From assembly GCA_015233675.1 (NCBI GenBank), contig JADFXH010000006.1, positions 65,285 through 129,284 on the forward strand: a stretch of DNA of 64,000 bases. Direction: 5' to 3'. The translations under genes and the position numbers were made by a program. The notes under the pieces were generated by a model. The model saw only the letters and a program-made list of their open reading frames with translations, was not told the origin of the DNA and did not search any database. The stretch is from Candidatus Omnitrophota bacterium. GTDB lineage: Bacteria > Omnitrophota > Gorgyraeia > Zapsychrales > Fredricksoniimonadaceae. Every line of letters begins with the position of its first letter. Position 1 is the first letter of the stretch. Shown here one piece after another: positions 1,635-45,222 of this stretch.

Positions 1635-4600
1635 TTGCATATTTATACTATGAGAGCCCCATGTGTCCATATAATTATTTTAACAGCTTTTTTGGCTAAT
1701 ACATTTGGCCCTGTGCCAATGGCCCGAGCTCAAGATTTTCGATTGCCCGCACCCGGGGTCATGGTCCATTTAAGTCCGCCGCTTGATCCTCCCATACTTA
1801 AAGGGATTAAGGTCCATCCTGATGATCCGTTTCGGTTTGATTTTATTTTGGACAAAGGAGATATGCCGACCAGGGGACATGTTCAAAATAGAAAAACAAA
1901 GAACGTGTCCCCAAGCACGTTGCCAAGCGAGTCAGGGTTGAATGTAAAAGCATCCCAGGGAGAGAACCCAACGCAAAACGAACAGGAATTACGAATTGAA
2001 TCCACAAAATTAATTAAATATTTTCTCGCCAGTTTGACCATTCCTGAGAAAGACTTATGGGTTAACCTAAGTCCTTACGAAAAGGACCGAATCATCCCTA
2101 ATTCATTTGGGCTTACAGAAATGGGCCGTGATTTATTGGCTGAAGACTATATGCTCAAGCAGATAACGGCTTCTTTAATTTATCCGGAAGATGAAACAGG
2201 TAGAAAGTTTTGGAAACGTATTTACGAAGAAGCATTTAAGAAGTACGGGACAACGGATATTCCGGTCAATACCTTTAATAAAGTTTGGATAGTACCCCAA
2301 AAAGCTGTGGTCTATGAAAATGCTAAAGCAGGAACTGCATATGTGGTGGAATCGAAATTAAAAGTAATGTTGGAACAGGATTATCTTTCATTTGAGAAGC
2401 ACCAAATGCCAACCAGGGGACATGTCCCCGCATTTGGGGACGTGTTCCCAAGCACGTTGCCAAGCAAATCTAGGGCAGAAGGTGAAAGCGCCCCAGGGCA
2501 ATCTCCGTCAGCCTTACCATATCAGGAAACCAATGCCCTAGGCTCCCAAATCGTCCGTGAGATTGTCATTCCTGAATTGACCAAAGAAGTCAATGAAAAC
2601 AAGAATTTCGCTAAATTACGCCAAATTTATAACTCGCTTATTCTAGCGACTTGGTACAAAAATAAAATTAAGGAAAGTATTTTATCGCAAGTTTATGCAA
2701 ATAAAAATAAAGTAGCCGGCGTTAGTGTAGATGATCCGCAAGAAAAAGAGAGGATATATCAGAAATATTTAAGGGCGTTTAAAACAGGTGTTTTTAATTA
2801 TATTAAAGAGGGTGTTGCTTCAACAACTCAAGAAACCATGCCAAGAAAGTATTTTTCCGGAGGGGTTAACCTGGCTTTTGAGGGTACCAATTTTAGAGAG
2901 GCGGCTATGACAGCTGCTAATCCAGCACAAGTAAGTGCAGCTATTAATAAGATTACTGAATTTAATCGTGCAATGAAGGTCATTGTGGATATATCCCAAA
3001 GTAATCAAGGATCGCCTGCAATAAATAGCACAACGATGAGCGGTGTGACTGTGCAAGGAGAAACCAGGACTGCAAAGACCTGGCCGGCCAGCAAGGATGG
3101 GAAGAGATATTACCTTTATGTAAATGAGAAAGGGCGTGTCTGGCAAAGGCTGATTAATGGCTGGATTGCGGGACAGACCGGGGTAAATTTTCCTAAAGTT
3201 TTTAGAGTCGAGGGTGAAGATTATCTGAATAATCCTGATATTGCAAAGTATTGGCGTAATCGGCGAGGAGAAACGGCTGCTTATTTGGCAGCCGATATCA
3301 ATGATATGACTGTTGCGGACCTTAATGATTCAGGATCGTCCGGGTTGGAGGCCGGTCTGGTCTACTTACAGTTCTCAGGGGATCATGATATTGATTTCAA
3401 TGTAGGCTCTCCATATAACGTAATCGTTTTGAATCTAGGAGGGAAGAAAAGATATATCTATTATGATTTTGAGTTTAGTTACTATGATTCATCGAGCAGT
3501 TCACAGAAATTCATGTTGCATGGAAGTAACGCGTTCAAAAAGTACTGGGTAAGGAAGATCAATGATCTTTCTGCGCAACGGGTTGTCGATGCGCTTCGGA
3601 AGATTTATGCAATCACGACGGACAGTCTCAGTTTGGCGGCGGGCCTTTGGGGTGTTCCTGCCAATCAGATTGATTTTGTAAAATTTGAAAAACGCAAGAA
3701 ACAGAGCGTCGAAGAGATTATCCAGGGGCTAAAGGGTTTACAGCAGTCCCAGCGGGTGAAAGTGCTTTTGAATGCTATCGAAGACGCTGGTTTTTTAAAC
3801 AATCCTGATCAGGCTCTTCCTAGAAGTTTCGGCCCCAATACAGGAAAAGTGTTAGGGACTAAAAGAATAGATGCCGCGATGATGTCCGACTCTTCGTTCG
3901 CTAATGGTCACTCCTTAGCGTATGATTCCGCGGGGAAAATACTTGTTGTCAAAAGGCTGCAGGAAAGAAAAACAGATATCTTTGAACCGATAAATAAAGG
4001 AGGAGAAAATAGCGACATTTTTGATTTAGGAGATTCGGTTGTTCGAGTTCTAAAAGATAAATCTTTAGAATATAGTCCCAAACAGCTTGAAATTATTAGT
4101 TTATTAGGGCAGAGAGGCGCCAGTCCGCGTTTATTATCTAATCCGGGCAGAACAAAAGAAGGTAATTTTTATCTGCATCTTGAAAAGGTTCAGGGAGAAA
4201 ATGTGGAAGAGTTGATAGGAAGAAAAGGGAAGTTGGATGATGTAGAGATAGAAGCAGTTAAAAGACTTGTAGATATTCTTATCGAGGAGAATATAGTCGA
4301 TGATGATTTTTATATAAATAACATTATGTTAGGACGTACGCATCCGGGGGCCCCTTTAGGTGCTTTTTTGGTAGATTTTGATTATTTAGAGAGGGTCAGG
4401 TTCAGAGCTGAAGCTATTGATAGCTATATCGTAGATTTTGAAACAATGTGGAAAAAAGCAGATCCAGACGGGCATATTGTAAAATATTTGAAAAAACGGC
4501 TCTCGGCGCAACTTTTACAAGGAAACAGCGTGCAGTTTGGTCTTCAAAATCAGGAGATGATACATAGTGAAGATTTAGATTTTAATCCTGATACAACAAC

Positions 4601-5963
4601 GCTTGTTATTAAGGGTAAAAGGGGAAAAGCCCGTTTTTTAAAGTTGATCTCGGAAGGAATAAATAGTTGGATATATGATTTCGATGATTATTCAACTATC
4701 AGGGTCATGAAAACAAAAGATTTTGAAAAGACTTATCCTATAGGAATAATTAGAACGCTGGGGGAAAAAGGTGTTGTTCCCAAGGTGCTTTCAGGTCAAG
4801 GAGTAACAAAAAATGGATATTATTATTTCCATTTTCAAAAGCTTAAAGGTGTGGATGTTAACAGCATTGTTCAAGAAAAAGGGGCGCTAAATTCGGGACA
4901 GATTAATGCGGTTGCTAAACTTTTAGATATTCTTATTAAGAATGGGATATTTGTTCATGAATTCAAAAATATTTCTAAGGTCATGCTAAAGCGAGTAAAT
5001 AAGGATTTATGGTCCGCTTATTTGGTTAATACTGATATGTTTGAGGATGTGAATGAGGAAATAATACGAGATAAGAGCTATTTAATCAGGCGGTATTTTC
5101 AGGTTTTGTCGCTGGGTGGTTGGTACCGGGCTGATCGGAAAAGGAGTCTTTTTGATCATTTGTACCAGAAACTCCCGGATAATCAAAAGCTTAACGATGC
5201 AACAGAAAAAAAAGAAAACGGCCCTTCATTGACCGAAAACCATCAGTCAGATCAGTCAATGATGGCAGAAGTAAATCGCCAAACGGAATATAAGGGGAGG
5301 TTTATGTATGATAATAAGAGGTTCAATCTGGGTAGTGATTATAAGAATAGGGACGTTATTTTAAAACCTATTGATGAAGATTGGCAAAAAGGCTGGGGTG
5401 TTTATACAGGTGATAAGTTGATCGCTGTTTATAAGAATGATAAGTTTATAGTCTTGGAAATAAAGCGGCGAACGGAAAATAAGGGGAGGTTTGTGTTTAA
5501 TAAAAAGAGGTTTAATCTTGGTATTGATAATAAGAATAAGGACGTTATTATAAAGCCCATTGATGAAGATTGGCAAAAAGGCTGGGGTGTTTATATCGAT
5601 AAGCATTTAATTGCTGATTACAGAACGGTAGATGATTCTTTTATTTTATATTTTGGAGAAATTGAAAAGGATTTAAATGATCCTGCCTTAAGAGGGTTAG
5701 GGGAAGAAAATGGCGGTATAGACTTTAGCCCTGTCAATATGAATTTACAGACTAAAGTAGAAGATTCCCGCTTTCGCGGGAATGACAACGTGAAGGGCGG
5801 GGATGTTAATGGAGGGATTAAGTTTTATCTTGACCCTGCCGTGCTCCAGCAACTCCAAAATGCCCCTGGTTTTGTGCCTGTCATTATCAATATCCAGCCG
5901 ATAATAAATTTGCGTCAATTTTTGGGCATAAAGGAGAATGCCCTTGTTAAAGGAAACGTATAA
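1635..5963 (+). CDS. large modular secreted protein A. Order: signal peptide, family N-terminal domain, unknown module, two kinase-like domains, 2 x 63-aa repeat, family C-terminal tag
   Basis: Uninterrupted 1442-codon ORF. The likely true start is ATG 1650 (MRAPCVHIIILTAFLANTFGPVPMARA|QDF). The N-domain is homologous to 9881-10945. The C-terminal ~80 aa are homologous to the ends of 7414-9009 and 9881-15319. Confidence 0.85.
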   Translation: MHIYTMRAPCVHIIILTAFLANTFGPVPMARAQDFRLPAPGVMVHLSPPLDPPILKGIKVHPDDPFRFDFILDKGDMPTRGHVQNRKTKNVSPSTLPSESGLNVKASQGENPTQNEQELRIESTKLIKYFLASLTIPEKDLWVNLSPYEKDRIIPNSFGLTEMGRDLLAEDYMLKQITASLIYPEDETGRKFWKRIYEEAFKKYGTTDIPVNTFNKVWIVPQKAVVYENAKAGTAYVVESKLKVMLEQDYLSFEKHQMPTRGHVPAFGDVFPSTLPSKSRAEGESAPGQSPSALPYQETNALGSQIVREIVIPELTKEVNENKNFAKLRQIYNSLILATWYKNKIKESILSQVYANKNKVAGVSVDDPQEKERIYQKYLRAFKTGVFNYIKEGVASTTQETMPRKYFSGGVNLAFEGTNFREAAMTAANPAQVSAAINKITEFNRAMKVIVDISQSNQGSPAINSTTMSGVTVQGETRTAKTWPASKDGKRYYLYVNEKGRVWQRLINGWIAGQTGVNFPKVFRVEGEDYLNNPDIAKYWRNRRGETAAYLAADINDMTVADLNDSGSSGLEAGLVYLQFSGDHDIDFNVGSPYNVIVLNLGGKKRYIYYDFEFSYYDSSSSSQKFMLHGSNAFKKYWVRKINDLSAQRVVDALRKIYAITTDSLSLAAGLWGVPANQIDFVKFEKRKKQSVEEIIQGLKGLQQSQRVKVLLNAIEDAGFLNNPDQALPRSFGPNTGKVLGTKRIDAAMMSDSSFANGHSLAYDSAGKILVVKRLQERKTDIFEPINKGGENSDIFDLGDSVVRVLKDKSLEYSPKQLEIISLLGQRGASPRLLSNPGRTKEGNFYLHLEKVQGENVEELIGRKGKLDDVEIEAVKRLVDILIEENIVDDDFYINNIMLGRTHPGAPLGAFLVDFDYLERVRFRAEAIDSYIVDFETMWKKADPDGHIVKYLKKRLSAQLLQGNSVQFGLQNQEMIHSEDLDFNPDTTTLVIKGKRGKARFLKLISEGINSWIYDFDDYSTIRVMKTKDFEKTYPIGIIRTLGEKGVVPKVLSGQGVTKNGYYYFHFQKLKGVDVNSIVQEKGALNSGQINAVAKLLDILIKNGIFVHEFKNISKVMLKRVNKDLWSAYLVNTDMFEDVNEEIIRDKSYLIRRYFQVLSLGGWYRADRKRSLFDHLYQKLPDNQKLNDATEKKENGPSLTENHQSDQSMMAEVNRQTEYKGRFMYDNKRFNLGSDYKNRDVILKPIDEDWQKGWGVYTGDKLIAVYKNDKFIVLEIKRRTENKGRFVFNKKRFNLGIDNKNKDVIIKPIDEDWQKGWGVYIDKHLIADYRTVDDSFILYFGEIEKDLNDPALRGLGEENGGIDFSPVNMNLQTKVEDSRFRGNDNVKGGDVNGGIKFYLDPAVLQQLQNAPGFVPVIINIQPIINLRQFLGIKENALVKGNV
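1863..1929. repeat. in-frame palindromic element, copy 1 (ATGCCGACCAGGGGACATGT..ACGTGTCCCCAAGCACGTTGCCAAGC)
   Basis: Near-identical ends to the copy at 2406-2466. Internal inverted repeat GGGGACATGT/ACGTGTCCCC. Translates as MPTRGHV..PSTLPS. Confidence 0.8.
2406..2466. repeat. in-frame palindromic element, copy 2
   Basis: ATGCCAACCAGGGGACATGTCCCCGCATTTGGGGACGTGTTCCCAAGCACGTTGCCAAGC. Same termini as copy 1. It sits in a loop that is short in the paralog at 9881. Confidence 0.8.
5283..5650 (+). repeat. tandem 189-bp (63-aa) coding repeat inside protein A
   Basis: The units start at about 5286 and 5475. ATTGATGAAGATTGGCAAAAAGGCTGGGGTGTTTATA occurs verbatim in both. At peptide level the repeat is KGRF.(Y/F).NK+RFNLG.D.KN+DVI.KPIDEDWQKGWGVY. 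Confidence 0.9.
5764..5786. repeat. small hairpin element ATTCCCGC-TTTC-GCGGGAAT(GAC) embedded in frame (peptide SRFRGNDN)
   Basis: Perfect 8-bp stem. Related hairpins occur at 50375-50392 and 43615-43664. It corresponds to an insertion relative to the C-terminal tag of 7414-9009. Confidence 0.75.
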
Positions 5964-7413: not shown

Positions 7414-9009
7414 GTGCCATTAATAAAAGGAGTCCCGGGTTTGTCAGACAGGTCCCATAATCTGGCTTTTACTATAATAGAACTAGTCATAGTCATTTCG
7501 GTATTGGCCAGGATGGGATCTTTCTTATATTATAAAATAGCCAATGGCAATACGGAGACGGCGAATGCCCTTGCTTTTGCTTATGTTGATGATTGTATAG
7601 AAATGATCATGTCAAAAGGAACGGGGCCTTTTAATGATTGGTTTTTTTTGCAAAGAGCGCTTAAAGGGTCAAAGAAAGAAAAAGAGGGTATTATCAAAAG
7701 AGAATTTTTGAGGAGGACCCTTTCTGGCGAAATGAATAATATTTTTAGGAAAGAAAAGATTCGGATGGGCATGGAAATTGTGGGCTTGTCGGTTGCATGG
7801 GCGGTCTATTCCGGAATCGGATATGCTTTTAACCAATGGGATCCAAGGGCCAGGCAAATGGGGTTATCAACGCAGGAAGATCGTGGAGCAGGCATGCCCC
7901 AGCTGTCCCAGACAATTGAAGATCTTATGGAAGGACCACCTTGGCAAGCCCCGCAGGCAACAGAGCCAGAACTCTCTGGGCAGACATCCCCGGAGCACCA
8001 GCCGGATGCCGACGGCAGAAAAATGAAAGAAGAAAGGCAAAAAACGAAGGCCTTTAGCAATGCGCTGGTAGGGAGGGTCAGGACAACGCTGAGAATAAGG
8101 ACGGATATAGCAGGGCCTGATCTGGACAGTTTTTATGACATCGTTGAATCATTGGCCTTGCCGGACGGTCTTCTCTCCGAAGTCATAGCGCCTTTTTCGA
8201 CCCCTGCAGAGTACTTTGAGTCCCTTCAAAGGGGCAACAGGCTGGAAGATGAGGATGTTATTGACGGGGAGGACGTTTTTCCGTCTGGTGGGTTTCCATT
8301 AAACCCCATTTATACTTTCAAGACGGGGTTGCTGACTAAGGCATGGGACGATCCAGCCAATCAAAGGAAGATCATCGATAGGATCAATAATGTTCTGGCT
8401 GACAGCCTGGAGGCCCCTGCTTATATGTATCCTGATTATCCGGGACTTTATCGGTTGCGCCTGGCAGGTCAAGGGTCTGTCGAATTGAGGGTGTATGTAA
8501 AGTCTTATAACCAAGAAGGGCAAAGAATATTGGTGATCATTGGGGTTGCCTCGAGCAATGAAGTCCATCAGAATGGAAAGAAAAGAAAATTGGAAGACGA
8601 CGTCACGGGGATCTTAGAGAAATTTAAGCCCAAGGCTGTTTATGGCACGTTCGATAAATTGCAGGCTTCCGGTCTTGATCTACAGAAAATGCAGGATGCG
8701 GCGATGGATGCGTTGGGAACCGATGAATTATCTTTTGAGGGGATACATTCTCCTTTAAATGCGATGAATAAAAATGTTAATATGGGAAATGGTGAATCGG
8801 AAATTTATAAAGGTGGTATTGACTTAAGCTCTGCCGGCATGAATTTACAAACACAAAATAACGCTGGAGGAATCAAGTTCCATCTTGATCCTGCTAAGCT
8901 AGCGCAACTTCAAAACGCCCCCGGCTTTGTGCCGGTAATCATTAATATTCAGCCAGTAACGGACCTTAGGAATTTCCTTGGGTCAGCCGATGGAAAGAGG
9001 GGGCAATAA
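7414..9009 (+). CDS. modular protein B with a pilin-like N-terminal helix, a second TM segment, a RelE/ParE-like core and the family C-terminal tag
   Basis: 531-codon ORF. A better start is TTG 7441, 8 nt after AGGAG (7428-7432), giving MSDRSHNLA|FTIIELVIVISVLA. The C-terminal GGIDLSSAGMNLQT..GGIKFHLDPAKLAQLQNAPGFVPVIINIQP matches protein A. Confidence 0.8.
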   Translation: MPLIKGVPGLSDRSHNLAFTIIELVIVISVLARMGSFLYYKIANGNTETANALAFAYVDDCIEMIMSKGTGPFNDWFFLQRALKGSKKEKEGIIKREFLRRTLSGEMNNIFRKEKIRMGMEIVGLSVAWAVYSGIGYAFNQWDPRARQMGLSTQEDRGAGMPQLSQTIEDLMEGPPWQAPQATEPELSGQTSPEHQPDADGRKMKEERQKTKAFSNALVGRVRTTLRIRTDIAGPDLDSFYDIVESLALPDGLLSEVIAPFSTPAEYFESLQRGNRLEDEDVIDGEDVFPSGGFPLNPIYTFKTGLLTKAWDDPANQRKIIDRINNVLADSLEAPAYMYPDYPGLYRLRLAGQGSVELRVYVKSYNQEGQRILVIIGVASSNEVHQNGKKRKLEDDVTGILEKFKPKAVYGTFDKLQASGLDLQKMQDAAMDALGTDELSFEGIHSPLNAMNKNVNMGNGESEIYKGGIDLSSAGMNLQTQNNAGGIKFHLDPAKLAQLQNAPGFVPVIINIQPVTDLRNFLGSADGKRGQ

Positions 9010-9100: not shown

Positions 9101-9490
9101 TTCGGGAAGGCAAGACGGCCTGCGGAAGGCAAACTTTCTGGGAAAGAATTAAGGAGGTTTGCACATCTCCCGGAGTTTTTCTCTATTGATCCCTGAAGGT
9201 TGTTCTTTTAAAGTCTGAGGAAGCGCAAACGGAAGGTAAACTTTCCTAAAAAAGAATTGTGGAAGTTTCCACATCTCCCGAAGCCTTTCTAAAAAAAATT
9301 ATTTCTGAATTCGGGGGGCAAACGGAAGGCAAACTTTCTGGGAAAGAATTAAGGAGGTTTGCACATCTCTCGAAATTTTTCTCTATTGATCTCTGAAGGT
9401 TGTTCTTTTAAAGTCTGAGGAAGCGCAAACGGAAGGTAAACTTTCCTAAAAAAGAATTGTGGAAGTTTACACATCTCCCGAAGCCTTTCT
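9101..9490 (+). repeat. 2 x 200-bp tandem non-coding repeat containing four copies of a ~52-nt structured motif
   Basis: 9123-9290 and 9323-9490 differ at 5 of 168 positions. The submotif GGAAGG(C/T)AAACTTTC..AAAGAATT..GGA(G/A)GTTT(G/C/A)CACATCTC(C/T)CG starts at about 9124, 9231, 9324 and 9431. Confidence 0.9.
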
Positions 9491-9522
9491 AGATGTAATT
9501 CTGATTAGTTTATGGTAGCTTT

Positions 9523-9596
<74 letters not shown>

Positions 9597-9880
9597 CTTT
9601 TTAGAATTTTCGGCTTCGGATGAGTCCTGTGGAATTTTCGAGAGATTAATTTTATAAAAGAATAAAGATTTTTTTGGATGCGTTGTAAATGTATATCCCC
9701 CAATATGTTGTCTAATCTTGATTAGGCGCCCCCGAGTTTGACAACCCTAAAATATGTGTTACCTTTTAGTAAGGTAACGCTTTCTCTAATCTATTCATTA
9801 TAAATTTTTCTTAGCTTCCCATTAAGTTCCCTGTCTTTATCCCAAAGAGGGGGCGCAGGGAAGTCCAAAAAGGACAAATA

Positions 9881-12800
9881 ATGTTTAAACGTTTTATTGC
9901 TTCGTTTGTTTGTCTTACCTTTATTTTTAGTAATTTCCAATATGCCCATGCTCAGGACTTTAGCATTAATCAACTTCCCGTGCCCGGGACAATGGTGGGG
10001 GTTTCCGCACCGTTTGCGCCTTTGACCTTAAAAGGACTGATCGTCAATCCCCAAAAACCGCTTGAGTTTCAATTTATCATTGATACCGGCCGCGGCCCGC
10101 AGGCCACCGCGGCAGTTAAAGATCAAGCCAATCAATTAGTTAAATATTTTTTAGTCGGACTGACCATCCCCGAAGGTGATCTGTGGGTCAACTTATCACC
10201 TTATGAAAAAGACCGCATGGTCCCTCAAGCTTTAGGCCAAACGGATTTGGGACGGGATTTACTAGCCCAAGACTATATCCTCAAGCAGTTGACCGCTTCT
10301 CTAATTTATCCGGAGAGAGATTTAGGCAAAGAATTCTGGAGCAGGGTATACGCAAAAGCCCAAGTGCAGTTTGGCACAACTAATGTTCCTGTTAACACCT
10401 TTAATAAGGTATGGATATTGCCTGATCAGGCGCAGGTGTTTGAAAATGTGAATGCTGCTTATGTTACCCAATCAACTTTAAAGGTGATGTTGGATGAGGA
10501 TTATTTAGCATTGGGGAAGAATAATTCCCCCCGCCCTAACCCTCCCCACCAGGGGGAGGGAAATGACACTCATACCTTTGCTTCACAAATCGTCCGTCAA
10601 ATCGTCCTTCCGGAAATTGAAAAAGAAGTCAACACCGGCAAGAATTTTGGGCCGTTACGCCAAATCTATCAAGCCCTGATCTTAGCTAAATGGTATAAGG
10701 AAACTATTCAAAACGGCCTTTTGGATGCGGTCTACACCAATAAGAAGAAGGTTGCCGGGGTCAACTTAGAAGATCCTGCGGTCAAAGAGCAGATTTATAA
10801 TCGATACCTCCAAGCCTACAAGAAGGGGGCGTTTAACTATATTAAAGAAAGCCCAACACCTGACGGGCAGGTTGTGCCGAGGAAGTATTTTTCGGGTGGG
10901 ACTCAAATGCGTATACCTTTTCTTAGCAGAACTCATGATGAAGCTATGCTATCAAAGCGGAAAATCGGGACTTTGTTGGCATTGACAATTTCTTTGACTG
11001 TATTGATGCCATCTGGGGCAGCATATGCTAATTATCAGAAGCATGTGCCTACGTCAAATCATCAACATCTTTCTCAAAAACAAGGCGAAAAGATCGTAAA
11101 TGAATTAGTGCAGGATATTAAACATGACAACCCATACACTAACGGCTTATTATTTGTCGGGAATGTTAAGAAGACTGACAAGGGGTATTTCTTATTAAAA
11201 AGTACCGATGTGATGATTGATACGCCTAAGACAAAGGGGATTTTATATATTTCACCAGATGTTGTAGCTGAAGTGGGAAAGAATTATATGGGGCCTAGGG
11301 TTAATTCCTTTGTTACCTTAGCCAATTTTCCTTCCCATATTGAGTATAGAAAAATGATGGTTAAATTGACAACTTTATCTAATCCGCCAGCTGTTCGCAT
11401 TGCTGCTGCAGTGGCTTTACGAAGAATGCCTGGTTCCAGCCTGATTCCGGATCTTATAAATATGTTGAAAGACCCTAATCCAGATGTACGGCTTGCGGGG
11501 GTTATAGCATTAGGCAGTAATGCGTTTGAGGTAGAAATTGGTGCTTTTCAGGAAAATGGACGTAAACTTCCGAGTAAGATCCTTTTACCATATTCGAATA
11601 ATCAGGTTTTTTCTGCCCTTGAAAGTTATTTGAAATTAGGGGTAAGAAATGATGACATGCCATTTATTTTAGAGACCTTGGTGAATCTTAGACCAGCTTT
11701 ATCAAAATCAAAAGTTGCCCATGATCTGATTAGGACCGTCCCTGTGGTGACCAGTCCCGATAAAGACATGGAAGGGTTTTTGCGACAAAGTTATTATCGG
11801 TTAAAAACAGGTCTCGCTGATAACGCCATGGCTAGTAACAGGCCCATTTTGCGTAAATTCGTAACTGGAGCGCTTGCTGCTGTATTATTAGCAGGGACTA
11901 CAGCAGAACCTGTTTTAGCACAAAGTAATGCGTTAACTATTTCTTCGACAGCGCCGATATCAGGATATTCTGTTGATAAACAAAAGGGAGAAGAAATAAC
12001 GTCTCTAGCTTCCGATCAACAGTGGCAAGCCAGAGGCGAAGAAGTAATAGATCAATTAGTAAAAGATATTGGAGATAGTCTTAAAAATTTAAATTGGCGC
12101 ATAGATGCCATAGTAGTCGATGCTAATTGGAAATACCCATTGCTTAAAAGTACTGATGTGTATATTAAAAGATCGGATGGTTCAATAGCTATTTTTAAAC
12201 CAGGACCAGGGGCATTAAGGGAGGAGGGGAAAAGCTATTGCGGAGCAAATACCGATCCTTTTATAACTTTGGCCAATTTCCCCCCGTTACCAGAATTTAG
12301 GAATAAGTTGGTGCGCTTGCTAAGTTCTCCTATTCCTGCAGTACGAGCGGCAGCTGCAATAAGCTTACGGGGAATGCCGGATAGAACCCTTATTCCACAT
12401 CTAGTTAAATTATTGGGAGATTCAAATCCCGATGTCCGCCTTGCTGCGGTCATAGCATTGGGCAGCACTGAAAGTGATATTAAACGAACATCCTCAGAGA
12501 AAGACCCTCAAAAATTATTTCTTGGGTTATTGAATCCCTATGATAATGAGACGGTGTTTTTTGCTTTGAAGAAATATATCAAAGGTGGAGTTAGAAATAA
12601 AGATGTTCCGATTATCCTAGAAACTTTAATTAATCTGCAAATTAATTCGCATGAAGACGGGTTTTTCCAGATAGTCCCAAAAGTTGATAGCCATGATAAA
12701 AACATGGAGAAATATTTGCAAAAATCTTATCTTCTGTTGAAAAGTAATATTCTTTCAAACAAACAGTCAACTTTTGAAGAATTAGGAGAGGCTGCGGGGC

Positions 12801-15319
12801 GAGGCGATCTTATGAAGGTTAAATTCTATATCGCCCACGGAGTTAATATCAATGGGAAGGATCAATTTGGCTGGACGCCTTTGATGTATGCGTCTAAATA
12901 TAATAATGAAGACGTAGTGAAGTTCCTTTTAAATCATGGTGCAGACGTTAATCTTAAGAATCATGACGCAAATACGGCTTTAATTGAAGCATCTTTTCAG
13001 GGGAATAGAAATATTGTGGAACTATTGTTAGATAAAGGGGCTAAAATTAACGCGAAAGATAAGAATGGGTACACTCCGTTGATATCTGCTTGTATATCTT
13101 CTGCAGACAATGTTGTAGAATTGCTGATTGATGGAGGAGCAAATATTAATGCCAAAGATACGAGGGGTTGGACAGCACTGAGGTGGGTACGTAATCAATT
13201 GAATGTGTTTCATGGCCCCAATATTGATGCCAAAAACAACCGTATCTTAACAATCCTCTTATCGCATGGAGCGAAGGATAATGCCATGTTCAGCCCAAGT
13301 TCTATATTGCGTAAGCTGGTAAATGGGTTGTTTGTCTCATTATTATTAGTAGGAATTATAACAAAACCGGGTTTGGCACAAAGCAATAGTTTTCCTCAAG
13401 CTTCAAGTAATTCAAAGACGCAAGCCAGTAAGAATTCTGATCCTGCATATGTTAAAGCACAGATTGATCAGTTTATGGCAAAAGCTAAAGGCAGTTTAGA
13501 TAAAATTTTGGATAGTCAGTCTTTTAAGCATATGAAAGATGTAAAAGGGGTGTTAGAACTTCAAGAATATATGGTTAAATCCGGTTATAATTTTGATAAT
13601 TTTCTTGGGACAACTCCAAGAGCAGATGAATTAATAAAGATGGGAAAATCAGCAGTTCCTGTGCTCAGGACTTATTTAAGCAATCCAGATAGAAGTATTC
13701 GTATGCTTAGCACAGGAGCGTTAGCGTTTATTTCTGATAAGAGCGCTGTTAATGATTTAAAAAAGTTGGCAAGCTCAGATCCTGAATGGATTGTTAGAGC
13801 ATTTTCTGTTTACGGGGTAATTTCTTCAACAAAATCAGAGGAATCTGTGCCTTATGGTTTAGATATTTTACGGGGGAAAGACCCCTTTATTGTTAAAGTG
13901 TTTGCAATTAATGCGATGAACAGCTATGGAGGAGGAGTTGCTACAGATGCTTTCTTAAAAGAGCTTAAAGGAAGCAGCGATGATATGTGGCTTTCGGCAG
14001 TTTTCGGATTAGGGTTATCTGCAGGGATTGAATTTCGAGCGGGTGAATTTAACGAAACAATGAAGGTGGCCTCTTTAATAGAGGCCTTAAAACAAAGTGG
14101 AATTGATATTCCGGTTGCAGATACTCCTATTGACTCATTGAATGAGTTATTAACAGATCAAAACTTGTTCAAAGTTATGAAAGTGCGGCCGGCAGAAACT
14201 CTGCCTCCCATTATGGGGCAATTAGAACAGGGAAGACAATTGGATCCTTCAGATATTATTAGGTTGAATAGGATTCTAATAGAGGCCAATTATCCATTGC
14301 AAACTCCTAAGAATAAAACATTGTCTCTGCTATTAGGGTCATTAGAAAGTTCAAATTCCAGAGTTCGAGCAGGCGCAATTGTGACTTTGAATGAAAGTAA
14401 TAATGAAGATATATTACTTCGCAGAGAAAACAATTCAGACCAAGACTTTAATGCCTTAAATATTATGTTAAACAGTAAAAATGAGGATGTTCGAGCTCTA
14501 TGTTTGGTGGCGATAGTAAAGTATTCGCCAAAATCAAAAGCAAAAGGAGTTCTTAAAAAGACTTTGAATGATCCAAGTCAAAAATTAAGAAGTGTGGCAA
14601 AACAGCTGTTAAAAGATATTGATGAGCCAGACAATGCAATGCTTATGGAAACGGCATTAAAACAAACCCAAGATACGGCGATGAACGCGACCGTGCGCTT
14701 GAAAAAAGGAGGGGATGTTGCAAGGAAGGTTTATGAACAAACATACACAGTATTAGAAGAATTATATGCGCGGCATGATTTTGACAAGGTAGCAAGGTTT
14801 CTTCTTTTATTGGCATCAAGAAAGCTTGTATTTCCTGAAGGTGAAAAGGACAGGCTGCAGAGCCGTAACGTTCTCCTTTTACAGCTCGAAGGTGAAGGTT
14901 TTGTTAACGAGATTATGTCGATTCTTAAGGATAGTGGTGCTGCCGTATTTGAGGGGGAGCCGACACTTGCTGGTGTCCGTAGCATAGAAGTGTCTGAGGA
15001 TGTTGTGAAAGTTCTACGTGCCGGATTGTATTCTATGAACCGTAGTGATAACTATGGTTTGCAAGACCCTCGGGATCTTACGGTTCCTGATGGAGCGATG
15101 ATAGGCAATAATACAGGTGGTATAGATCTTAACCAAATTAACGTCTTACACAATGGCAAGACAGTTAATGTCCAATTTGACCCCGCGCAATTATATGAAC
15201 TCATGCAGGGAGGGTTTGAAGGTTTTTCGCCGGTTATTATTAATATTACGCCTATTCAAAGTCCGTTGCCGTTGTTGGGTATCGGTACGGTCAATGAAGG
15301 GGGCTTGGCCAAAGTATAG
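9881..15319 (+). CDS. giant modular secreted protein C. Order: signal peptide, family N-terminal domain, three HEAT-repeat modules each with its own internal signal-peptide-like segment (ankyrin repeats sit in the second), a fourth module, divergent family C-terminal tag
   Basis: Uninterrupted 1812-codon ORF. MFKRFIASFVCLTFIFSNFQYAHA|QDF signal. N-domain homologous to protein A (LWVNLSPYEKDR, NTFNKVWI.P, PRKYFSGG). PBS-lyase-type HEAT motifs (P.VR.AA..AL, D.NPDVRLA.VIALG). ANK repeats at about 12790-13200. C-terminal GGIDLN..FDPAQL..GF.PVIINI.P. Confidence 0.9.
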   Translation: MFKRFIASFVCLTFIFSNFQYAHAQDFSINQLPVPGTMVGVSAPFAPLTLKGLIVNPQKPLEFQFIIDTGRGPQATAAVKDQANQLVKYFLVGLTIPEGDLWVNLSPYEKDRMVPQALGQTDLGRDLLAQDYILKQLTASLIYPERDLGKEFWSRVYAKAQVQFGTTNVPVNTFNKVWILPDQAQVFENVNAAYVTQSTLKVMLDEDYLALGKNNSPRPNPPHQGEGNDTHTFASQIVRQIVLPEIEKEVNTGKNFGPLRQIYQALILAKWYKETIQNGLLDAVYTNKKKVAGVNLEDPAVKEQIYNRYLQAYKKGAFNYIKESPTPDGQVVPRKYFSGGTQMRIPFLSRTHDEAMLSKRKIGTLLALTISLTVLMPSGAAYANYQKHVPTSNHQHLSQKQGEKIVNELVQDIKHDNPYTNGLLFVGNVKKTDKGYFLLKSTDVMIDTPKTKGILYISPDVVAEVGKNYMGPRVNSFVTLANFPSHIEYRKMMVKLTTLSNPPAVRIAAAVALRRMPGSSLIPDLINMLKDPNPDVRLAGVIALGSNAFEVEIGAFQENGRKLPSKILLPYSNNQVFSALESYLKLGVRNDDMPFILETLVNLRPALSKSKVAHDLIRTVPVVTSPDKDMEGFLRQSYYRLKTGLADNAMASNRPILRKFVTGALAAVLLAGTTAEPVLAQSNALTISSTAPISGYSVDKQKGEEITSLASDQQWQARGEEVIDQLVKDIGDSLKNLNWRIDAIVVDANWKYPLLKSTDVYIKRSDGSIAIFKPGPGALREEGKSYCGANTDPFITLANFPPLPEFRNKLVRLLSSPIPAVRAAAAISLRGMPDRTLIPHLVKLLGDSNPDVRLAAVIALGSTESDIKRTSSEKDPQKLFLGLLNPYDNETVFFALKKYIKGGVRNKDVPIILETLINLQINSHEDGFFQIVPKVDSHDKNMEKYLQKSYLLLKSNILSNKQSTFEELGEAAGRGDLMKVKFYIAHGVNINGKDQFGWTPLMYASKYNNEDVVKFLLNHGADVNLKNHDANTALIEASFQGNRNIVELLLDKGAKINAKDKNGYTPLISACISSADNVVELLIDGGANINAKDTRGWTALRWVRNQLNVFHGPNIDAKNNRILTILLSHGAKDNAMFSPSSILRKLVNGLFVSLLLVGIITKPGLAQSNSFPQASSNSKTQASKNSDPAYVKAQIDQFMAKAKGSLDKILDSQSFKHMKDVKGVLELQEYMVKSGYNFDNFLGTTPRADELIKMGKSAVPVLRTYLSNPDRSIRMLSTGALAFISDKSAVNDLKKLASSDPEWIVRAFSVYGVISSTKSEESVPYGLDILRGKDPFIVKVFAINAMNSYGGGVATDAFLKELKGSSDDMWLSAVFGLGLSAGIEFRAGEFNETMKVASLIEALKQSGIDIPVADTPIDSLNELLTDQNLFKVMKVRPAETLPPIMGQLEQGRQLDPSDIIRLNRILIEANYPLQTPKNKTLSLLLGSLESSNSRVRAGAIVTLNESNNEDILLRRENNSDQDFNALNIMLNSKNEDVRALCLVAIVKYSPKSKAKGVLKKTLNDPSQKLRSVAKQLLKDIDEPDNAMLMETALKQTQDTAMNATVRLKKGGDVARKVYEQTYTVLEELYARHDFDKVARFLLLLASRKLVFPEGEKDRLQSRNVLLLQLEGEGFVNEIMSILKDSGAAVFEGEPTLAGVRSIEVSEDVVKVLRAGLYSMNRSDNYGLQDPRDLTVPDGAMIGNNTGGIDLNQINVLHNGKTVNVQFDPAQLYELMQGGFEGFSPVIINITPIQSPLPLLGIGTVNEGGLAKV
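10520..10567. repeat. in-frame G/C palindromic element (AATAATTCCCC..CCCTCCCC-ACCA-GGGGGAGGGAAATGAC)
   Basis: Hairpin at 10540-10560. The same element with the same AATAATTCCCC flank lies intergenically at 29917-29955. It translates as NSPRPNPPHQGEGND. Confidence 0.8.
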
Positions 15320-28452: not shown

Positions 28453-29919
28453 ATGCGCTTAAGCGAATTAATTGACGGAATTTATAGAGAGCCTTTAGTC
28501 TTTTCATATCGGAATTTTGATGTTCGTACAATTTCCTGCGATTCTCGTGAGGAACAAACAGATGGATTATTCGTAGCATTAGCCGGTACTAAATTAAACG
28601 GAGAGGATTTTATTAAGGATGCGATAGCCAAAGGGGCTAAAATTATCGCCAAGCAAGGTGAGACAAGGAAACTTAAAAACGTAAGTATCCCGGATAATGT
28701 ATGCGTTCTGGATGTGGATGATCCAAAATATTTTTTGTACTCCATAGGGCAGCGATTTTACGGAAATCCCTCTGATAAGATTAAAAGTGTGGGGATAACC
28801 GGTACAAATGGCAAGACCACTATCACCTATTTGATTGAGTCTATTATCTATGCTGCATTGAAACGCTGCGGGGTGATCGGAACAGTCAATTACCGTATCG
28901 GTGACAAAATTTTGCCTTCAAAAAATACAACTCCAGGATTTTTGGACAATCAGCGATACTTAGCGCAATTGGTTAGCCTAAAGGTTGAATATTGCGTGAT
29001 GGAAGTTTCTTCTCATGCCCTGGACCAAGGAAGGCTCGAAGGTATTCATTTTTCAGCGGGTATTTTTACTAACTTGACGCAGGATCATTTGGACTATCAC
29101 AAGGACATGGAGAATTACTTTAATGCCAAATCTTTGTTGTTCAGAAATCTTTCATCGATGGCGGTTTCTGTCATCAATGTGGATGACGATTATGGAAGGC
29201 GTCTGTGTTCATTGACCAAGAGTAAGCTTATCACCTATGCCATTGACCATCCGGCGGATTTGCGTGCCCAGAATATAACCTATCACCTAAGCGGCAGCCA
29301 ATATGAAATAGTTTTTCCTGAAGGTATGATAAAAATTCATACCCGATTTATTGGGAAACATAACATTTATAACATTTTGGCGGCGTTTGCCTGGGGGATT
29401 TCCCAGGGCTTTGCCCCGGAATGCATCCGTCAGGGTATTCAAAATTTAACTTATGTTCCAGGGAGGCTTGAGCCGGTCGAGAACGGTAAGGGAATTTTTG
29501 TATTTATAGATTATGCGCATACCGAGGATGGGCTTGTCAATGTGCTGAAAGCTCTAAGGGCTGTCAGAACTGAGAAAATAATTCTTGTTTTTGGATGCGG
29601 AGGAGATCGGGACCGCACGAAACGCCCTAAAATGGGGCATGCGGCATGTTTACTTGCGGATCACTCCATCGTTACTACCGATAATTCTCGCAGTGAGGAC
29701 CCTCTGGCGATTATTAATGAAATTATTGCCGGGTTTACAAAAAGGAATTTTGAGATCTGTGTTGACCGCAAGGAGGCGATCGGACGTGCCCTTAACCTTG
29801 CCCAAAAAGATCAAATCGTCTTAATTGCCGGAAAAGGCCATGAGGATTATCAGGTTTTTAAGGACCGTACCATTGCTTTTAATGAACGTGAAATTATAGA
29901 GGAGTTTTTGAAGGAATAA
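28453..29919 (+). CDS. murE: UDP-MurNAc-L-Ala-D-Glu--2,6-diaminopimelate ligase
   Basis: GITGTNGKTT P-loop and TTDNSRSEDP (DNPR-type DAP motif); dcw synteny. Confidence 0.95.
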   Translation: MRLSELIDGIYREPLVFSYRNFDVRTISCDSREEQTDGLFVALAGTKLNGEDFIKDAIAKGAKIIAKQGETRKLKNVSIPDNVCVLDVDDPKYFLYSIGQRFYGNPSDKIKSVGITGTNGKTTITYLIESIIYAALKRCGVIGTVNYRIGDKILPSKNTTPGFLDNQRYLAQLVSLKVEYCVMEVSSHALDQGRLEGIHFSAGIFTNLTQDHLDYHKDMENYFNAKSLLFRNLSSMAVSVINVDDDYGRRLCSLTKSKLITYAIDHPADLRAQNITYHLSGSQYEIVFPEGMIKIHTRFIGKHNIYNILAAFAWGISQGFAPECIRQGIQNLTYVPGRLEPVENGKGIFVFIDYAHTEDGLVNVLKALRAVRTEKIILVFGCGGDRDRTKRPKMGHAACLLADHSIVTTDNSRSEDPLAIINEIIAGFTKRNFEICVDRKEAIGRALNLAQKDQIVLIAGKGHEDYQVFKDRTIAFNEREIIEEFLKE

Positions 29920-29955
29920 ATAATTCCCCTCCCCACAAAGGGGGAGGGAGCCGAG
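29917..29955. repeat. G/C palindromic element (CCCCTCCCC-ACAAA-GGGGGAGGG) in the murE-murF spacer
   Basis: Hairpin at 29926-29948. Same flank and core as the in-frame copy at 10520-10567. A looser relative lies at 15343-15373. Confidence 0.8.
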
Positions 29956-42475: not shown

Positions 42476-42494
42476 AACACGTTTGTAAAGCTTT

Positions 42495-42568
42495 GCGCCT
42501 GTAGCTCAACTGGATAGAGCATTAGTCTTCGGAACTAAGGGTTGCTGGTTCGAGTCCAGCCAGGCGCG
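42495..42568 (+). tRNA. tRNA-Arg (anticodon TCG), no encoded CCA
   Basis: Acceptor GCGCCTG/CAGGCGC, D arm GCTC-AACTGGATA-GAGC, anticodon stem TTAGT/ACTAA with loop CTTCGGA, T arm GCTGG-TTCGAGT-CCAGC. Confidence 0.9.
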
Positions 42569-42678
42569 TTTTTCTAAAGTAGTTGGGGTTTGGGATTTTT
42601 CTCGTCGTGAGGAAATTCTTTCCCCTGCGTAAATTCAGCCGTCGGATTACAGTCCCTTGCCTGTGAGTCAACGGCTAT

Positions 42679-43602
42679 ATGATAGAACATCCTGCGCAGT
42701 TAAAGCTTGTCGATTTATTCAAGGAATTTACCGCTTACGCTATTTTAGAAAGGTGCTTAGAACCTACCACAATTGGGTGGTATGATGCGACCATTAAATC
42801 TTTCTATAAGCATCTCCGCCGTCGGGTAATACCTGCCACTTTAGACTCCCTGAATGTTGATACCCTCCGTGATTTTCTCATTTACCAGCGACAACAAGGC
42901 AACTCACCCAGGACGATTATCAATTTATTGAAGGGTTTGAGGTCATTTTGCACCTTCTTGGTCAAGCGTGGTCATCTGGTCAAGAACCCCTTTGACGGCA
43001 TGGAAAAGCCCAAGCTACCCCGCAAACTCCCCGAATTTCTGGATGAGGAAGAGGCCAGGGGATTACTTAGGGTCTGTTTAGACAGAAAGCTCTTTTATAA
43101 ATCCCAATATTACAGGGATGTGGCCATTATAGCCATGTTCCTGTTTACGGGGGTAAGGCTCAAGGAGCTTCTTAACCTCCGCTTACCCGATTTAAACCTT
43201 GAACGGGGCTATATCAAGGTGTCAGCCAAGAATAAAGAGCGGTTAATCCCGCTTAATGAAACGGTTGTCGAGTATTTAAAGGATTATTTGAAAGTCAGGC
43301 CCCAACGGACGATAGATAATGTCTTCGTATCAACGAATAGAAAAGATAAAGCCTTGACCAGGGAAGGGCTTTACAATTTATTTGGGGAATTAAGACGAAA
43401 GCTCAAGCTCCCTAAGAAAATTTCCCCGCAGATACTGCGACATACATTTTGTACCCTCATGTTAAGGAGCGGGGTCAATATACGGGACATCCAATTGCTT
43501 GTGGGCCATTCGGACATCTCCACCACAGCCAAGTTTTATTTAGGATGTGACCCAGGACAGTTAAAGGGGGCGATTGAAAAACACCCCCTGAATTTGAATT
43601 AA
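42679..43602 (+). CDS. tyrosine integrase / site-specific recombinase
   Basis: SAM-like N-domain. Catalytic region TGVRLKEL, ILRHTFCTLMLRSGVNIRDIQLLVGHSDISTTAKFY. It lies 110 bp downstream of the tRNA. Confidence 0.9.
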   Translation: MIEHPAQLKLVDLFKEFTAYAILERCLEPTTIGWYDATIKSFYKHLRRRVIPATLDSLNVDTLRDFLIYQRQQGNSPRTIINLLKGLRSFCTFLVKRGHLVKNPFDGMEKPKLPRKLPEFLDEEEARGLLRVCLDRKLFYKSQYYRDVAIIAMFLFTGVRLKELLNLRLPDLNLERGYIKVSAKNKERLIPLNETVVEYLKDYLKVRPQRTIDNVFVSTNRKDKALTREGLYNLFGELRRKLKLPKKISPQILRHTFCTLMLRSGVNIRDIQLLVGHSDISTTAKFYLGCDPGQLKGAIEKHPLNLN

Positions 43603-43632
43603 CTTCAACGTGTCATTCCCGAATGTCGGAGA

Positions 43633-43655
43633 CCCCGCCAAAGGCGGTGGTTTTT
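43633..43655 (+). terminator. Rho-independent terminator candidate nested in an ATTCCCGA/TCGGGAAT outer hairpin
   Basis: CCGCC-AAA-GGCGG stem-loop followed by TGGTTTTT. The outer stem is 43615-43622 / 43657-43664. Confidence 0.5.
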
Positions 43656-43692
43656 ATCGGGAATCCAGGAGGTAACCATTATTGTCTTATAT

Positions 43693-43944
43693 TTGCTTAT
43701 TTGCGTTATCTGCTGTGCTTTCCCCCCGTTGGGGGTGCTGGCAGTAATTGTATTTTTAATATCCAGGGCTAAAAATTCGGGTAATGGCAGGGAGAAAATT
43801 AATTATAGCCATGTGGGATATCCACCCTGTAAATCTTTTAGCCATGAAATAGATAAAAATGGCATTTCTTGGGGGAAATCATACAGGGACAAAAGGGGGC
43901 GGATTAGATATTGTTGTAATCCCCATCATAATCATTTTTATTAA
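43693..43944 (+). CDS. small Cys/His-rich protein with an N-terminal TM (hypothetical)
   Basis: ORF only. TTG start and no recognisable family. Confidence 0.3.
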   Translation: MLICVICCAFPPLGVLAVIVFLISRAKNSGNGREKINYSHVGYPPCKSFSHEIDKNGISWGKSYRDKRGRIRYCCNPHHNHFY

Positions 43945-44076
43945 TACTTTGTGCTTGCATGGTTAAACGTGATAGGGCAACATCAAGAAAGAAGTATGCG
44001 CCCGCTCTTGTTTTCCTGTTAAAACACTTTATAATCTTAGATAAAATAGGTTTTTATAAAATCCTTTGAGGCAGGT

Positions 44077-45222
44077 ATGTATTCGAACCAAGATTTTATG
44101 ATTCCCAAAGAAGTTGGCAATGTGTTCCGCATTGCAATGATTCCAGAATTTCCGTCCTTATTCATAGGCAATTCAGGCGATAGTTTTGAGGATTCATATT
44201 CCTGTGATGATTTTACAGTAAATGTTTATACGACCAAAGCCGAATTAAAAGAAGTTGGCCTATCTGTTCAAGACCTGGGGGCTATTGATTCGAGACTTCA
44301 ACATTCTATAGGCAATTGGCTTATGAATATAAAAGCCCGAGGAGGAAATGATACAATCAAAGGAAGTCTTAAAACATTGGCTAAAGATATTTATGCAGGG
44401 CGACCAGTTAGAGATAATGATTATAAGAATTTAGCCGTCAATTTAAAGAGTTTAAAGGCCTTCCAGTACTCTGTTTCTATAGAATCAGGGAAGGGAAAAG
44501 GCAATTATTCTATTCATCTTATACATGAGCTTGTATATAACGATAAAAGAAGAAGTTTTATTGTTACTTTACCAGAAAATTTATCCCCCCGTGTAGCTAA
44601 TGAAATTAAAGGAGAAAAAGAGCTTGGCCTGTACATTTCAATAACTGTTCGAGATATTTATCCAAGACAGAAGAGGTATGAGTATAAAATGAGGCAATAT
44701 TTAGCAGGGATTAAAAAAAGTTCGCAGAATATCAAGAGGACAAAGGGGGACACATTATTAGAACAGTTTGGATATTTGGCGTATTGTAAACAATTTAAAG
44801 AAAAATACCGTAATAAGGATGCAGAATATTGGATGCAAAAATATATAGAGGTGGCCTTAGATTGCGGTGTAAAAGTTAACTGTGTTGAGGGAACTGGCCC
44901 GTCGATTGATACCCGTAAAAAATATTATTTTACGAATACAAGAATTAGCTCCGAGAATAGGAAGATTTCCGAAGAAGAAAAAAAAGAACTTGTTGATGAA
45001 TTAGCCAATTTTATTAAAAAGACGAGTAAAAAATTACACCCTGATATAAATACGTGCATTAATGAGGCTAAGAGATTAATTGAGAGATATTCATATCAAG
45101 AGGTTAAGGAAGCCTTTGAAATGGACGTGAAGCCATACCCTGGAAATACAATAGACGATTTAAGAGCGATTTTATCAGGGGAATCTCCCGCCAAATTATT
45201 AGAAGACACCCCCGTTGTATAA
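44077..45222 (+). CDS. hypothetical protein, putative replication initiator of the element
   Basis: 381-codon ORF with no family recognised. The Rep assignment is inferred only from the phased iterons and AT-rich tract immediately 3' of it. Confidence 0.6.
   Translation: MYSNQDFMIPKEVGNVFRIAMIPEFPSLFIGNSGDSFEDSYSCDDFTVNVYTTKAELKEVGLSVQDLGAIDSRLQHSIGNWLMNIKARGGNDTIKGSLKTLAKDIYAGRPVRDNDYKNLAVNLKSLKAFQYSVSIESGKGKGNYSIHLIHELVYNDKRRSFIVTLPENLSPRVANEIKGEKELGLYISITVRDIYPRQKRYEYKMRQYLAGIKKSSQNIKRTKGDTLLEQFGYLAYCKQFKEKYRNKDAEYWMQKYIEVALDCGVKVNCVEGTGPSIDTRKKYYFTNTRISSENRKISEEEKKELVDELANFIKKTSKKLHPDINTCINEAKRLIERYSYQEVKEAFEMDVKPYPGNTIDDLRAILSGESPAKLLEDTPVV

Follow-up and report, generated by a model that had tools for sequence, protein, structure and literature searches.

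In-frame hairpin repeats in an Omnitrophota protein: probable copies of a dispersed, Rickettsia palindromic element-like repeat

How does a hairpin-forming DNA sequence come to lie, twice and in frame, within the coding sequence of one large protein? The question is raised by protein A, encoded near the start of a 64-kb (64,000-nucleotide) stretch of a Candidatus Omnitrophota genome (132-kb contig JADFXH010000006.1), the whole of which is referred to here as the window. Two similar sequences interrupt its N-terminal domain, and each of them could in principle be a piece of protein, a signal in the mRNA or a piece of DNA that has become coding. I conclude that both are probably copies of a dispersed, non-autonomous Omnitrophota repeat that resembles the Rickettsia palindromic elements (RPEs), is selfish or neutral, and is tolerated in disordered loops. 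This reading is preferred because the sequence is conserved at the nucleotide and not the peptide level, because it occurs in several host families as well as between genes, and because it varies in presence and absence, is modular and decays.

An initial annotation of this DNA described a ~60-bp palindromic element with two copies that share their termini. The termini are indeed exact at both sites (spans 1863-1928 and 2406-2465): the left one, ACCAGGGGACATGT (14 nt), lies at 1869-1882 and 2412-2425, and the right one, CCCAAGCACGTTGCCAAGC (19 nt), at 1910-1928 and 2447-2465. With up to two mismatches the left terminus has four matches in the window against a chance expectation of 0.34, and with up to three mismatches the right terminus has no further site in the 64 kb, where 0.03 would be expected by chance. 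The inverted repeat is likewise found in both copies, as hairpins of 12-14 bp. Sense-strand RNA folds to -21.5 kcal/mol in copy 1 (z = -4.5) and -29.5 kcal/mol in copy 2 (z = -3.8), while the antisense folds are less distinctive (z = -2.7 and -2.3, respectively), a difference due to two U.G pairs of the sense stem that become A.C mismatches on the complementary strand. The hairpin of copy 1 was also recovered by a hairpin scan of the window and by an RNAalifold consensus.

The hairpin is only part of the repeat. In a pairwise alignment the similarity between the copies runs on to ~1962 and ~2502 at ~75% identity, and in copy 1 it probably reaches ~1981, where the 3' extension ..CCCAACGCAAAACGA agrees with the conserved end of other copies. 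A profile built with nhmmer from 39 copies matches 1864-1962 (E = 2e-26) and 2407-2502 (E = 5e-21). The palindrome first described therefore stands as a hairpin, and not as the whole element: the unit is ~100-120 nt long, ends beyond 1929 and 2466, and is palindromic in its 5' third only (Table 1). The interiors of the two hairpins differ completely, copy 1 having a 16-nt A-rich loop and copy 2 the sequence CCCC-GCATTT-GGGG, a CCCC..GGGG type that is also present at loci L027 and L108, and both window interiors recur in other genomes. Since the interiors are different and each is present elsewhere, copies 1 and 2 are best regarded as independent acquisitions from different subfamilies, with no recent internal duplication.

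Table 1. Coordinates of protein A and its two repeat copies (window positions), with the census of copies by site and the loci named in the text.
Feature	Position	Strand	Description
Protein A	1635..5963	+	1442 aa from TTG at 1635; deposited from ATG at 1650 as MBF0571302.1 (HQL12_05460), 1437 aa
Copy 1, full unit	1863..1981	+	Loop site 1 of protein A, after FILDKGD; encodes MPTRGHVQNRKTKNVSPSTLPSESGLNVKASQGENPTQNE; 3' end probable
5' box of copy 1	1865..1870	+	GCCGAC; family consensus GCCAAC
Hairpin of copy 1	1873..1912	+	12-bp stem GGGGACAUGUUC/GAACGUGUCCCC, one U.G pair, 16-nt A-rich loop
Unstructured tail of copy 1	1913..1962	+	AAGCACGTTGCCAAGC...TTGAATGTAAAAGCATCCCAGGGA, read as PSTLPSESGLNVKASQG; defined by alignment to copy 2 and to 39 copies, no consensus pairing predicted
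Copy 2	2406..2502	+	Loop site 2 of protein A, after EQDYLSFEKHQ; encodes MPTRGHVPAFGDVFPSTLPSKSRAEGESAPGQ
Hairpin of copy 2	2416..2449	+	14-bp stem GGGGACAUGUCCCC/GGGGACGUGUUCCC, two wobble pairs, loop GCAUUU
Tail of copy 2	2450..2502	+	One-base shift relative to copy 1
N-domain family, site 1			8 copies
N-domain family, site 2			~69 copies
N-domain family, site 3			~16 copies, after VYADKNKxxG
Interdomain linker of aldolase-like protein			9 copies
E2 acyltransferase lipoyl-domain linkers			3 copies
'KIDW' family			3 copies
One other open reading frame			1 copy
Intergenic			~19 copies
Intergenic copies (examples)	L084:4681-4768; L084:7937 to L067:37; L067:1361-1461; L143:11651-11759; L118:3101-3187; L150:7298-7395; L182:11084-11201
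Copies with nested insert	L001:1618-1749; L020; L034:4082-4212; L097; L182:11084-11201
High-GC core loci (and others)	L009; L010; L012; L053; L056; L069; L072; L080; L083

Both copies fall inside the open reading frame (ORF) at 1635-5963 and are read through as MPTRGHV...PSTLPS, just as first proposed, yet what follows is not the same peptide. Column 105 of the pairwise alignment holds a 1-nt indel, owing to which the homologous tail DNA reads LNVKASQGE in copy 1 and AEGESAPGQ in copy 2, such that GTAAAAGCATCCCAGGG gives V-K-A-S-Q-G in the former and its homologue GTGAAAGCGCCCCAGGG gives (G)-E-S-A-P-G in the latter. At locus L001, which encodes protein P0040, the same element (..GCCAACCAGGGGACATGTTCAA..GAACGTGTCCCCAAGCAGGTTGCCAAGC..TGAATGTGAAAGCACCCCAGGGAAAC) has its hairpin part one base out of phase, where it is read as QPGDM..GTCPQAGCQAS, and a spacer longer by 1 nt restores the phase. 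Over the 117 unique copies with a locatable hairpin start, the frame is PGD in 56, TRG in 54 and QGT in seven; hairpins are accordingly read as TRGHV, QPGDM or QGTC, and tails as LNVKAPQG or EGESTPGK. That one stretch of DNA is used in multiple frames rules out an ordinary conserved peptide repeat. Stop codons are absent from two sense frames of the element, and at times from all three, and the encoded peptide is rich in Pro, Ser, Thr, Gly, Gln, Asn and Lys. The ORFs that contain a copy in the sense direction are long (hundreds to 2772 codons), and the copies in them are presumably translated. Two further ideas about decoding were considered and rejected: translational bypass, as the frame is open in every case, and in-frame read-through into the intergenic copies, as their phase relative to the upstream ORF is inconsistent.

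Is the element then confined to protein A? The initial annotation reasoned that a sequence unique to this gene, and present in the orthologues of all its relatives, would be an ordinary protein repeat. Instead, the element was found widely. A scan of 185,579 species-representative genomes with the pattern CAGGGGACATGT-N(4-34)-ACGTGTYCCC returned more than 116 loci, against ~4 expected by my own estimate, and at least ~14 of these loci belong to a single metagenome-assembled genome (MAG), CAZKUL01. Among the matches listed, a low-GC class (38-53% GC) consists of Omnitrophota-type MAGs that carry the full unit, several of them deposited as 'uncultured Planctomycetales' though of Omnitrophota type. 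An independent scan of metagenomes anchored on the tail alone yielded 72 additional loci, and the nhmmer profile detected additional copies, tail-only ones included. After removal of duplicates, the census comprises 128 unique copies from Omnitrophota MAGs and metagenomes. The family that shares the N-terminal domain of protein A (the N-domain family) holds 93 of them (73%), and linkers or ORFs of other proteins hold 16. The tally of intergenic against intragenic copies that had been suggested as a check thus comes to ~19 against 109 (an intragenic share of 85%), the intragenic ones being frame-open.

Every one of the 128 copies is in the sense orientation relative to its host or flanking genes. 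The intergenic copies nearly all begin 0-7 nt past the stop codon of a co-oriented upstream gene and end 23-94 nt before the next gene, with a tail that reaches ~20 nt past CCCAGGGAAAC, to ..GTTCGACAAAC or ..GTACGCCAAAC. No match to the hairpin pattern was found in the viral contigs scanned, and blastn searches of plasmids with a window copy and with a Caulobacter hairpin doublet (described below) gave no match. At the gathering threshold Rfam 15 recognizes only two tRNAs in the whole window, and at a permissive E-value its matches over 1750-2650 are at chance level (E = 0.9-6.6). The literature searched contained no account of Omnitrophota repeats or of the hairpin sequence itself.

Protein A consists of a signal peptide, an Omnitrophota-specific N-terminal domain of ~350 aa (the N-domain), a variable middle and a C-terminal GGIDL..PVIINIQP domain. 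The N-domain has no Pfam match, and a Foldseek search of its model against the PDB gave no significant match, but at least 1617 of the 8000 candidates scored are homologues, and these are fused to many different domains. When protein A is compared by BLASTP with paralog C (9881-15319; 46% identity over the N-domain), the alignment has a gap of 35 aa following FILDKGD, and a further 27 gap positions fall in the site-2 loop after EQDYLSFEKH. Both coincide with the repeat copies, so that the placement first noted, at the points where A is longer than C, is borne out. An alignment of the 120 best homologues shows that these loops are hypervariable in length (27 and 33 aa are commonest, with maxima of 64 and 74) and that ~13 of the 120 carry the element at one or both sites, in the form PTRGHV..SPSTLPS..LNVKAxQG or QPGDM..GTCPQAGCQAS..LNVKAPQG. 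Presence and absence vary even among near relatives: of two proteins among the closest homologues, each 67% identical to A, P0002 has both sites empty and P0001 has site 1 empty, and the same-MAG paralogs P0044 and P0057 lack the element.

The sites are also predicted to be structurally permissive. In an AlphaFold2 model (built from the ATG at 1650 with 69 sequences; mean predicted local distance difference test score, pLDDT, 73; predicted template modelling score 0.68) copy 1 (residues 72-104) and copy 2 (residues 253-284) both form coil with block pLDDT of 39-59 between confident strands or helices, and most flanking 10-residue blocks have pLDDT of 83-95. Site 3 (residues 352-362) is likewise coil. 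The surface loops of the original description are therefore upheld at the level of a prediction. In many further homologues the same loops hold at least five other recurrent peptides of repeat-like appearance, among them VIPAKAGIH, VIARSEATKQS, VILSAAKDL..SSATPQND, SSPNAxVGD and SPPLxGGxRGG, each of which is found at both sites in different, unrelated members, and at L121:1227-1301 two repeat families lie side by side at site 3.

Comparison of the copies defines a unit with three parts, namely a GCCAAC box on the 5' side, a hairpin, and ~60-80 nt of unstructured tail. In the left flank the information content rises to 1.5-1.7 bits over the 6 nt GCCAAC only, and the GCCAAC-CA box followed by the GGGGACATGT..ACGTGTCCCC hairpin has the form of a short imperfect palindrome with conserved flanking bases. 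The outer stem GGGGACAUGU/ACGUGUCCCC is constant and the interior free to vary. The RNAalifold consensus is a single 12-bp hairpin with the tail unpaired; the search pattern imposed ten of its pairs, which are hence ascertained, and the hairpin gains support from covariation at the first unascertained pair (UA 26, CG 7, AU 1, UU 5). Interiors group into recurrent types, and pairing is preserved in each. In a tail-anchored sample, for which the hairpin was not used in selection, the ACATG/CGTGT asymmetry (U.G in the sense RNA only) is retained in 50 of 62 copies with an intact GGGGA...TCCCC outer stem, and a single copy is symmetric.

Furthermore, the unit is modular, and its copies are eroded to varying degrees. 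At L108 a hairpin segment of 36 nt (CCAACCAGGGGACATGTCCCCGAAGGGGACGTGTCC), with CCAA on either side, is cleanly present in one of two adjacent paralogs and absent from the other, which marks the hairpin as a separable module; the tails of the two paralogs are ~97% identical against ~83% for the flanks. Other copies are tail-only, have eroded hairpins, or carry a nested insert of ~35 nt (GGTCCTCAAGCCGGACACTCGCAGTTGCTCGCA or a variant) in the tail just after the hairpin, the frame staying open.

The hairpin core also reaches beyond the Omnitrophota. A high-GC class of genomes (58-72% GC) that includes, among the matches listed, Caulobacter and other Caulobacterales, Aminicenantes, Acidobacteria, Polyangiaceae and others has the core hairpin only, extended as GTACC..GGTAC (GGGGACATGTACC..GGTACGTGTCCCC). 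There it lies between genes in many copies, usually as an inverted doublet with members ~30 nt apart. Doublets were seen in the Caulobacter and Aminicenantes loci, and none among the Omnitrophota copies. I count the intergenic inverted doublets of these phyla in favour of a dispersed repeat. At three high-GC loci the ORFs between clustered hairpins looked like a SAM-methyltransferase-like protein, a PIN-like protein and ordinary genes; by eye, with no domain search made, none was recognized as a transposase, including the transposases associated with repetitive extragenic palindromic (REP) sequences, or RAYTs. Integron attC sites were considered and rejected, as the core sites do not fit RYYYAAC/GTTRRRY.

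Other small GC-rich hairpins in the window act alike, in frame and between genes, and this too I count for the dispersed-repeat reading. The conserved C-terminal domain of protein A holds, at 5763-5784, a third GC-rich hairpin in frame (GATTCCCGCTTTCGCGGGAATG, encoding ..DSRFRGND..); it belongs to a different family and coincides with a 15-aa insertion relative to protein B (7414-9009). A small hairpin family, CCCTCCCCAC..GGGGGAGGGA, is represented in frame at 10539-10561, in loop site 2 of paralog C (..NPPHQGEGN..), and between genes at 29926-29949, 7 nt past the stop codon of the ORF 28453-29919. In paralog C, loop site 1 also has a GC-rich palindrome at 10087-10115 (CGGCCGCGGCCCGCAGGCCACCGCGGCAG, -16.1 kcal/mol).

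If the sequences are copies of such a repeat, the following history can be proposed. The element would spread to many places and survive where it is harmless, either directly behind stop codons in short operon spacers or in frame within disordered loops and linkers, where it would simply be translated. Its interior would be free to vary so long as pairing is kept, the outer stem GGGGACATGT/ACGTGTCCCC remaining fixed, and small spacer indels would re-phase it. In the greatly expanded N-domain family three permissive loops would have been occupied, and spread there was probably extended by gene duplication and by gene conversion among paralogs. The hairpin may serve as the handle by which an enzyme of the RAYT or IS200/IS605 kind, acting in trans on single-stranded DNA, recognizes the element, and strand-specific insertion plus selection would account for the uniform sense orientation. 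The element itself would be selfish or neutral.

Several observations weigh against this reading. No mobilizing enzyme was found next to the copies, and alignment and consensus fold reveal no terminal inverted repeats, the ends GCCAAC... and ...CGCCAAAC/CGACAAAC being direct. Possible target duplications are limited to CGCCAAC-like motifs at both ends of many full units and a 4-nt CCAA that brackets the hairpin; the CCAA at L108 could be either a duplication or microhomology used in a deletion, and the CGCCAAC-like ends could be the element's own. Recent mobility would be expected to leave traces, and neither near-identical pairs among the copies nor polymorphism within populations was seen; the 64-kb window holds two copies only, and the concentration of 73% of copies in one protein family could arise by recombination alone. 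Random insertion does not predict an exclusively sense orientation that extends to the ~19 intergenic copies, which are under no coding constraint, and retention of the stem asymmetry may reflect function rather than descent. Sense-only orientation, adjacency to stop codons and conserved asymmetry together exceed what passive tolerance alone would give. These three traits fit strand-specific insertion into single-stranded DNA with selection, or a role at the RNA level.

The RNA-level role is the basis of the rival I take most seriously, although I consider it unlikely. A selected RNA hairpin was the alternative offered at the outset, and the sense-only orientation keeps it alive as a minority view. 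The element would be a cis-acting RNA module, a sense hairpin in mRNAs or behind stop codons that acts as a signal for stability, processing or ribosome pausing and is kept for the regulation of secreted-protein genes or operons. It would explain at once the orientation of all 128 copies, intergenic ones included, the start of the intergenic copies immediately past the upstream stop codon, a stem asymmetry that is U.G in sense RNA and A.C on the other strand, and interiors that vary yet remain paired. However, many copies are decayed, hairpin-less or bear nested inserts in the same loops with the ORF intact, the majority of family members lack the element altogether, the conserved 60-80 nt tail has no predicted structure and no Rfam family matches. 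Moreover, high-GC genomes have the core in both orientations, as doublets, which argues for recognition at the DNA level.

A broader possibility, which I hold to be improbable, is that the element as a whole is active: an RNA-level or transcription-coupled system marked by the sense-only orientation, the docking 0-7 nt behind stop codons and the U.G asymmetry. It would be either a cis-regulatory hairpin with a host factor or a sequence spread via an RNA or single-stranded intermediate, used by Omnitrophota, together with several other hairpin repeat families, as a source of variation in three surface loops of a very large family of secreted, effector-like proteins, and the core common to several phyla would be the recognition site of an undescribed, horizontally travelling enzyme. 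If true, this would be a case of repeat-driven loop variation.

Also improbable is a non-mobile indel cassette with a single origin in the N-domain family, spread by gene duplication and conversion, its other sites being rare recombination accidents. The share of copies at three fixed sites of one family and the uniform orientation would follow from it, and tails that are more alike than their flanks in the adjacent paralogs of L108 are what gene conversion would give. However, the three sites within the N-domain lack homology with each other, non-homologous insertion is needed to reach the ~19 intergenic sites and at least four unrelated families of host proteins, and the hairpin core is common to intergenic repeats of other phyla. 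Finally, that a linker peptide (MPTRGHV..SPSTLPS..LNVKAPQGN) was selected for flexibility, glycosylation or binding and duplicated within the family is scarcely credible, for all its Pro/Ser/Thr-richness and its recurrence at the same three family positions in loops modelled as exposed, when the same DNA gives unrelated peptides in two or three frames, already between the window copies, when ~19 copies are untranslated, and when a peptide-profile search of 5.8 billion proteins yielded only one 47-aa fragment (a result uninformative in itself, the query being too short for a database of that size).

The remainder of the window provides some context for the host gene. Proteins A, B and C have in common a C-terminal module of ~70 aa with no Pfam match and the pattern GGIDL..NLQT..GGIKF.LDPA.L..LQNAPGFVPVIINIQP. 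A and C also have the N-domain in common, and their middles differ, with tandem kinase-like repeats in A and HEAT plus ankyrin repeats in C; judged from its sequence, this architecture looks like that of a polymorphic secreted-effector family. Immediately upstream of protein A, on the minus strand at 46-1513, are three tandem paralogous pilin-like genes, and the one scanned (1013-1513) has the type IV prepilin N-terminal methylation motif. At 9123-9500, in an intergenic region just upstream of tRNA-Pro (9523-9597), a 178-nt segment is tandemly repeated at 95% identity with a 200-nt period, each repeat containing a sub-repeat of ~100 nt. Further along, a tyrosine integrase gene (42679-43602) comes directly after tRNA-Arg (42494-42569), whose 3' half recurs at 48939-48986 with 92% identity and in part at 49116-49136; the region 42494-49136 has the look of an integrated island, ~6.4 kb long, with a methyltransferase among its genes.

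Should the dispersed-repeat reading hold, it would carry the conversion of selfish hairpin DNA into protein, the RPE phenomenon, beyond Rickettsia and, on a large scale, into a candidate phylum that is free-living or epibiotic, with three loops of a family of at least 1617 homologues serving as landing pads for this repeat and several others. For annotation, it would account for the short spurious ORFs of Omnitrophota MAGs and for low-complexity inserts such as MPTRGHV, QPGDM and LNVKAPQGN. For protein evolution, it supplies natural cases of loops and linkers that tolerate insertions, and of a single DNA segment that is read in multiple frames. For the study of mobile elements, it raises the question of what enzyme acts on a core common to Omnitrophota, Caulobacterales, Aminicenantes and Acidobacteria, why the orientation is sense-only, and why copies abut stop codons.

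How does the element compare with known systems? REP sequences and their paired form, REPINs, which are associated with RAYTs (TnpA-REP, of the Y1/HUH type), are similar in having an imperfect palindrome of 26-46 nt with a conserved asymmetric mismatch and many copies, and the inverted core doublets ~30 nt apart between genes in Caulobacter, Aminicenantes and Acidobacteria are REPIN-like. REPs of E. coli often lie within ~15 nt of stop codons. The Omnitrophota hairpin, by contrast, is single, mostly intragenic and embedded in a longer non-palindromic unit, such that the extragenic location typical of REPs is found in the core-only high-GC copies and not in Omnitrophota. The initial classification as a REP-type element or a miniature inverted-repeat transposable element (MITE) in coding sequence is thus supported as to a dispersed nucleic-acid element; of the marks of a MITE in the strict sense, neither terminal inverted repeats nor a clear target-site duplication nor a transposase was found. 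With ambiguous short direct repeats only, no terminal inverted repeats and no transposase identified, membership of the REP/RAYT or MITE classes is not established.

The GC-cluster or 'byp' insertions of yeast mitochondria are mobile GC-rich hairpins in coding sequence; they disrupt the reading frame, and the ribosome bypasses them. The Omnitrophota element differs in keeping an open frame, being re-phased by small indels, so that plain translation suffices. BOX, ERIC, Correia and RUP elements are likewise short, non-autonomous and multi-copy, sometimes modular (BOX has A, B and C modules) and occasionally fused in frame (PMC10969869), but they have terminal inverted repeats, which the Omnitrophota element lacks, and usually target-site duplications.

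The RPEs remain the closest parallel in behaviour, and sequence homology is not to be expected across phyla. A review documents their in-frame insertions, fused with unrelated ORFs (PMC10969869). The Omnitrophota unit departs from them in being palindromic in its 5' third only, the remainder being an unstructured tail where an RPE is a palindrome throughout, in being concentrated in three loops of one expanded family, and in being read in two or three frames with every copy sense-oriented. Like the RPEs, however, it is a dispersed repeat in the order of 100-150 nt that is found both between genes and, in frame, within unrelated ones, adds further peptide where the fold permits it, and belongs to one of several such families per genome (PMC10969869).

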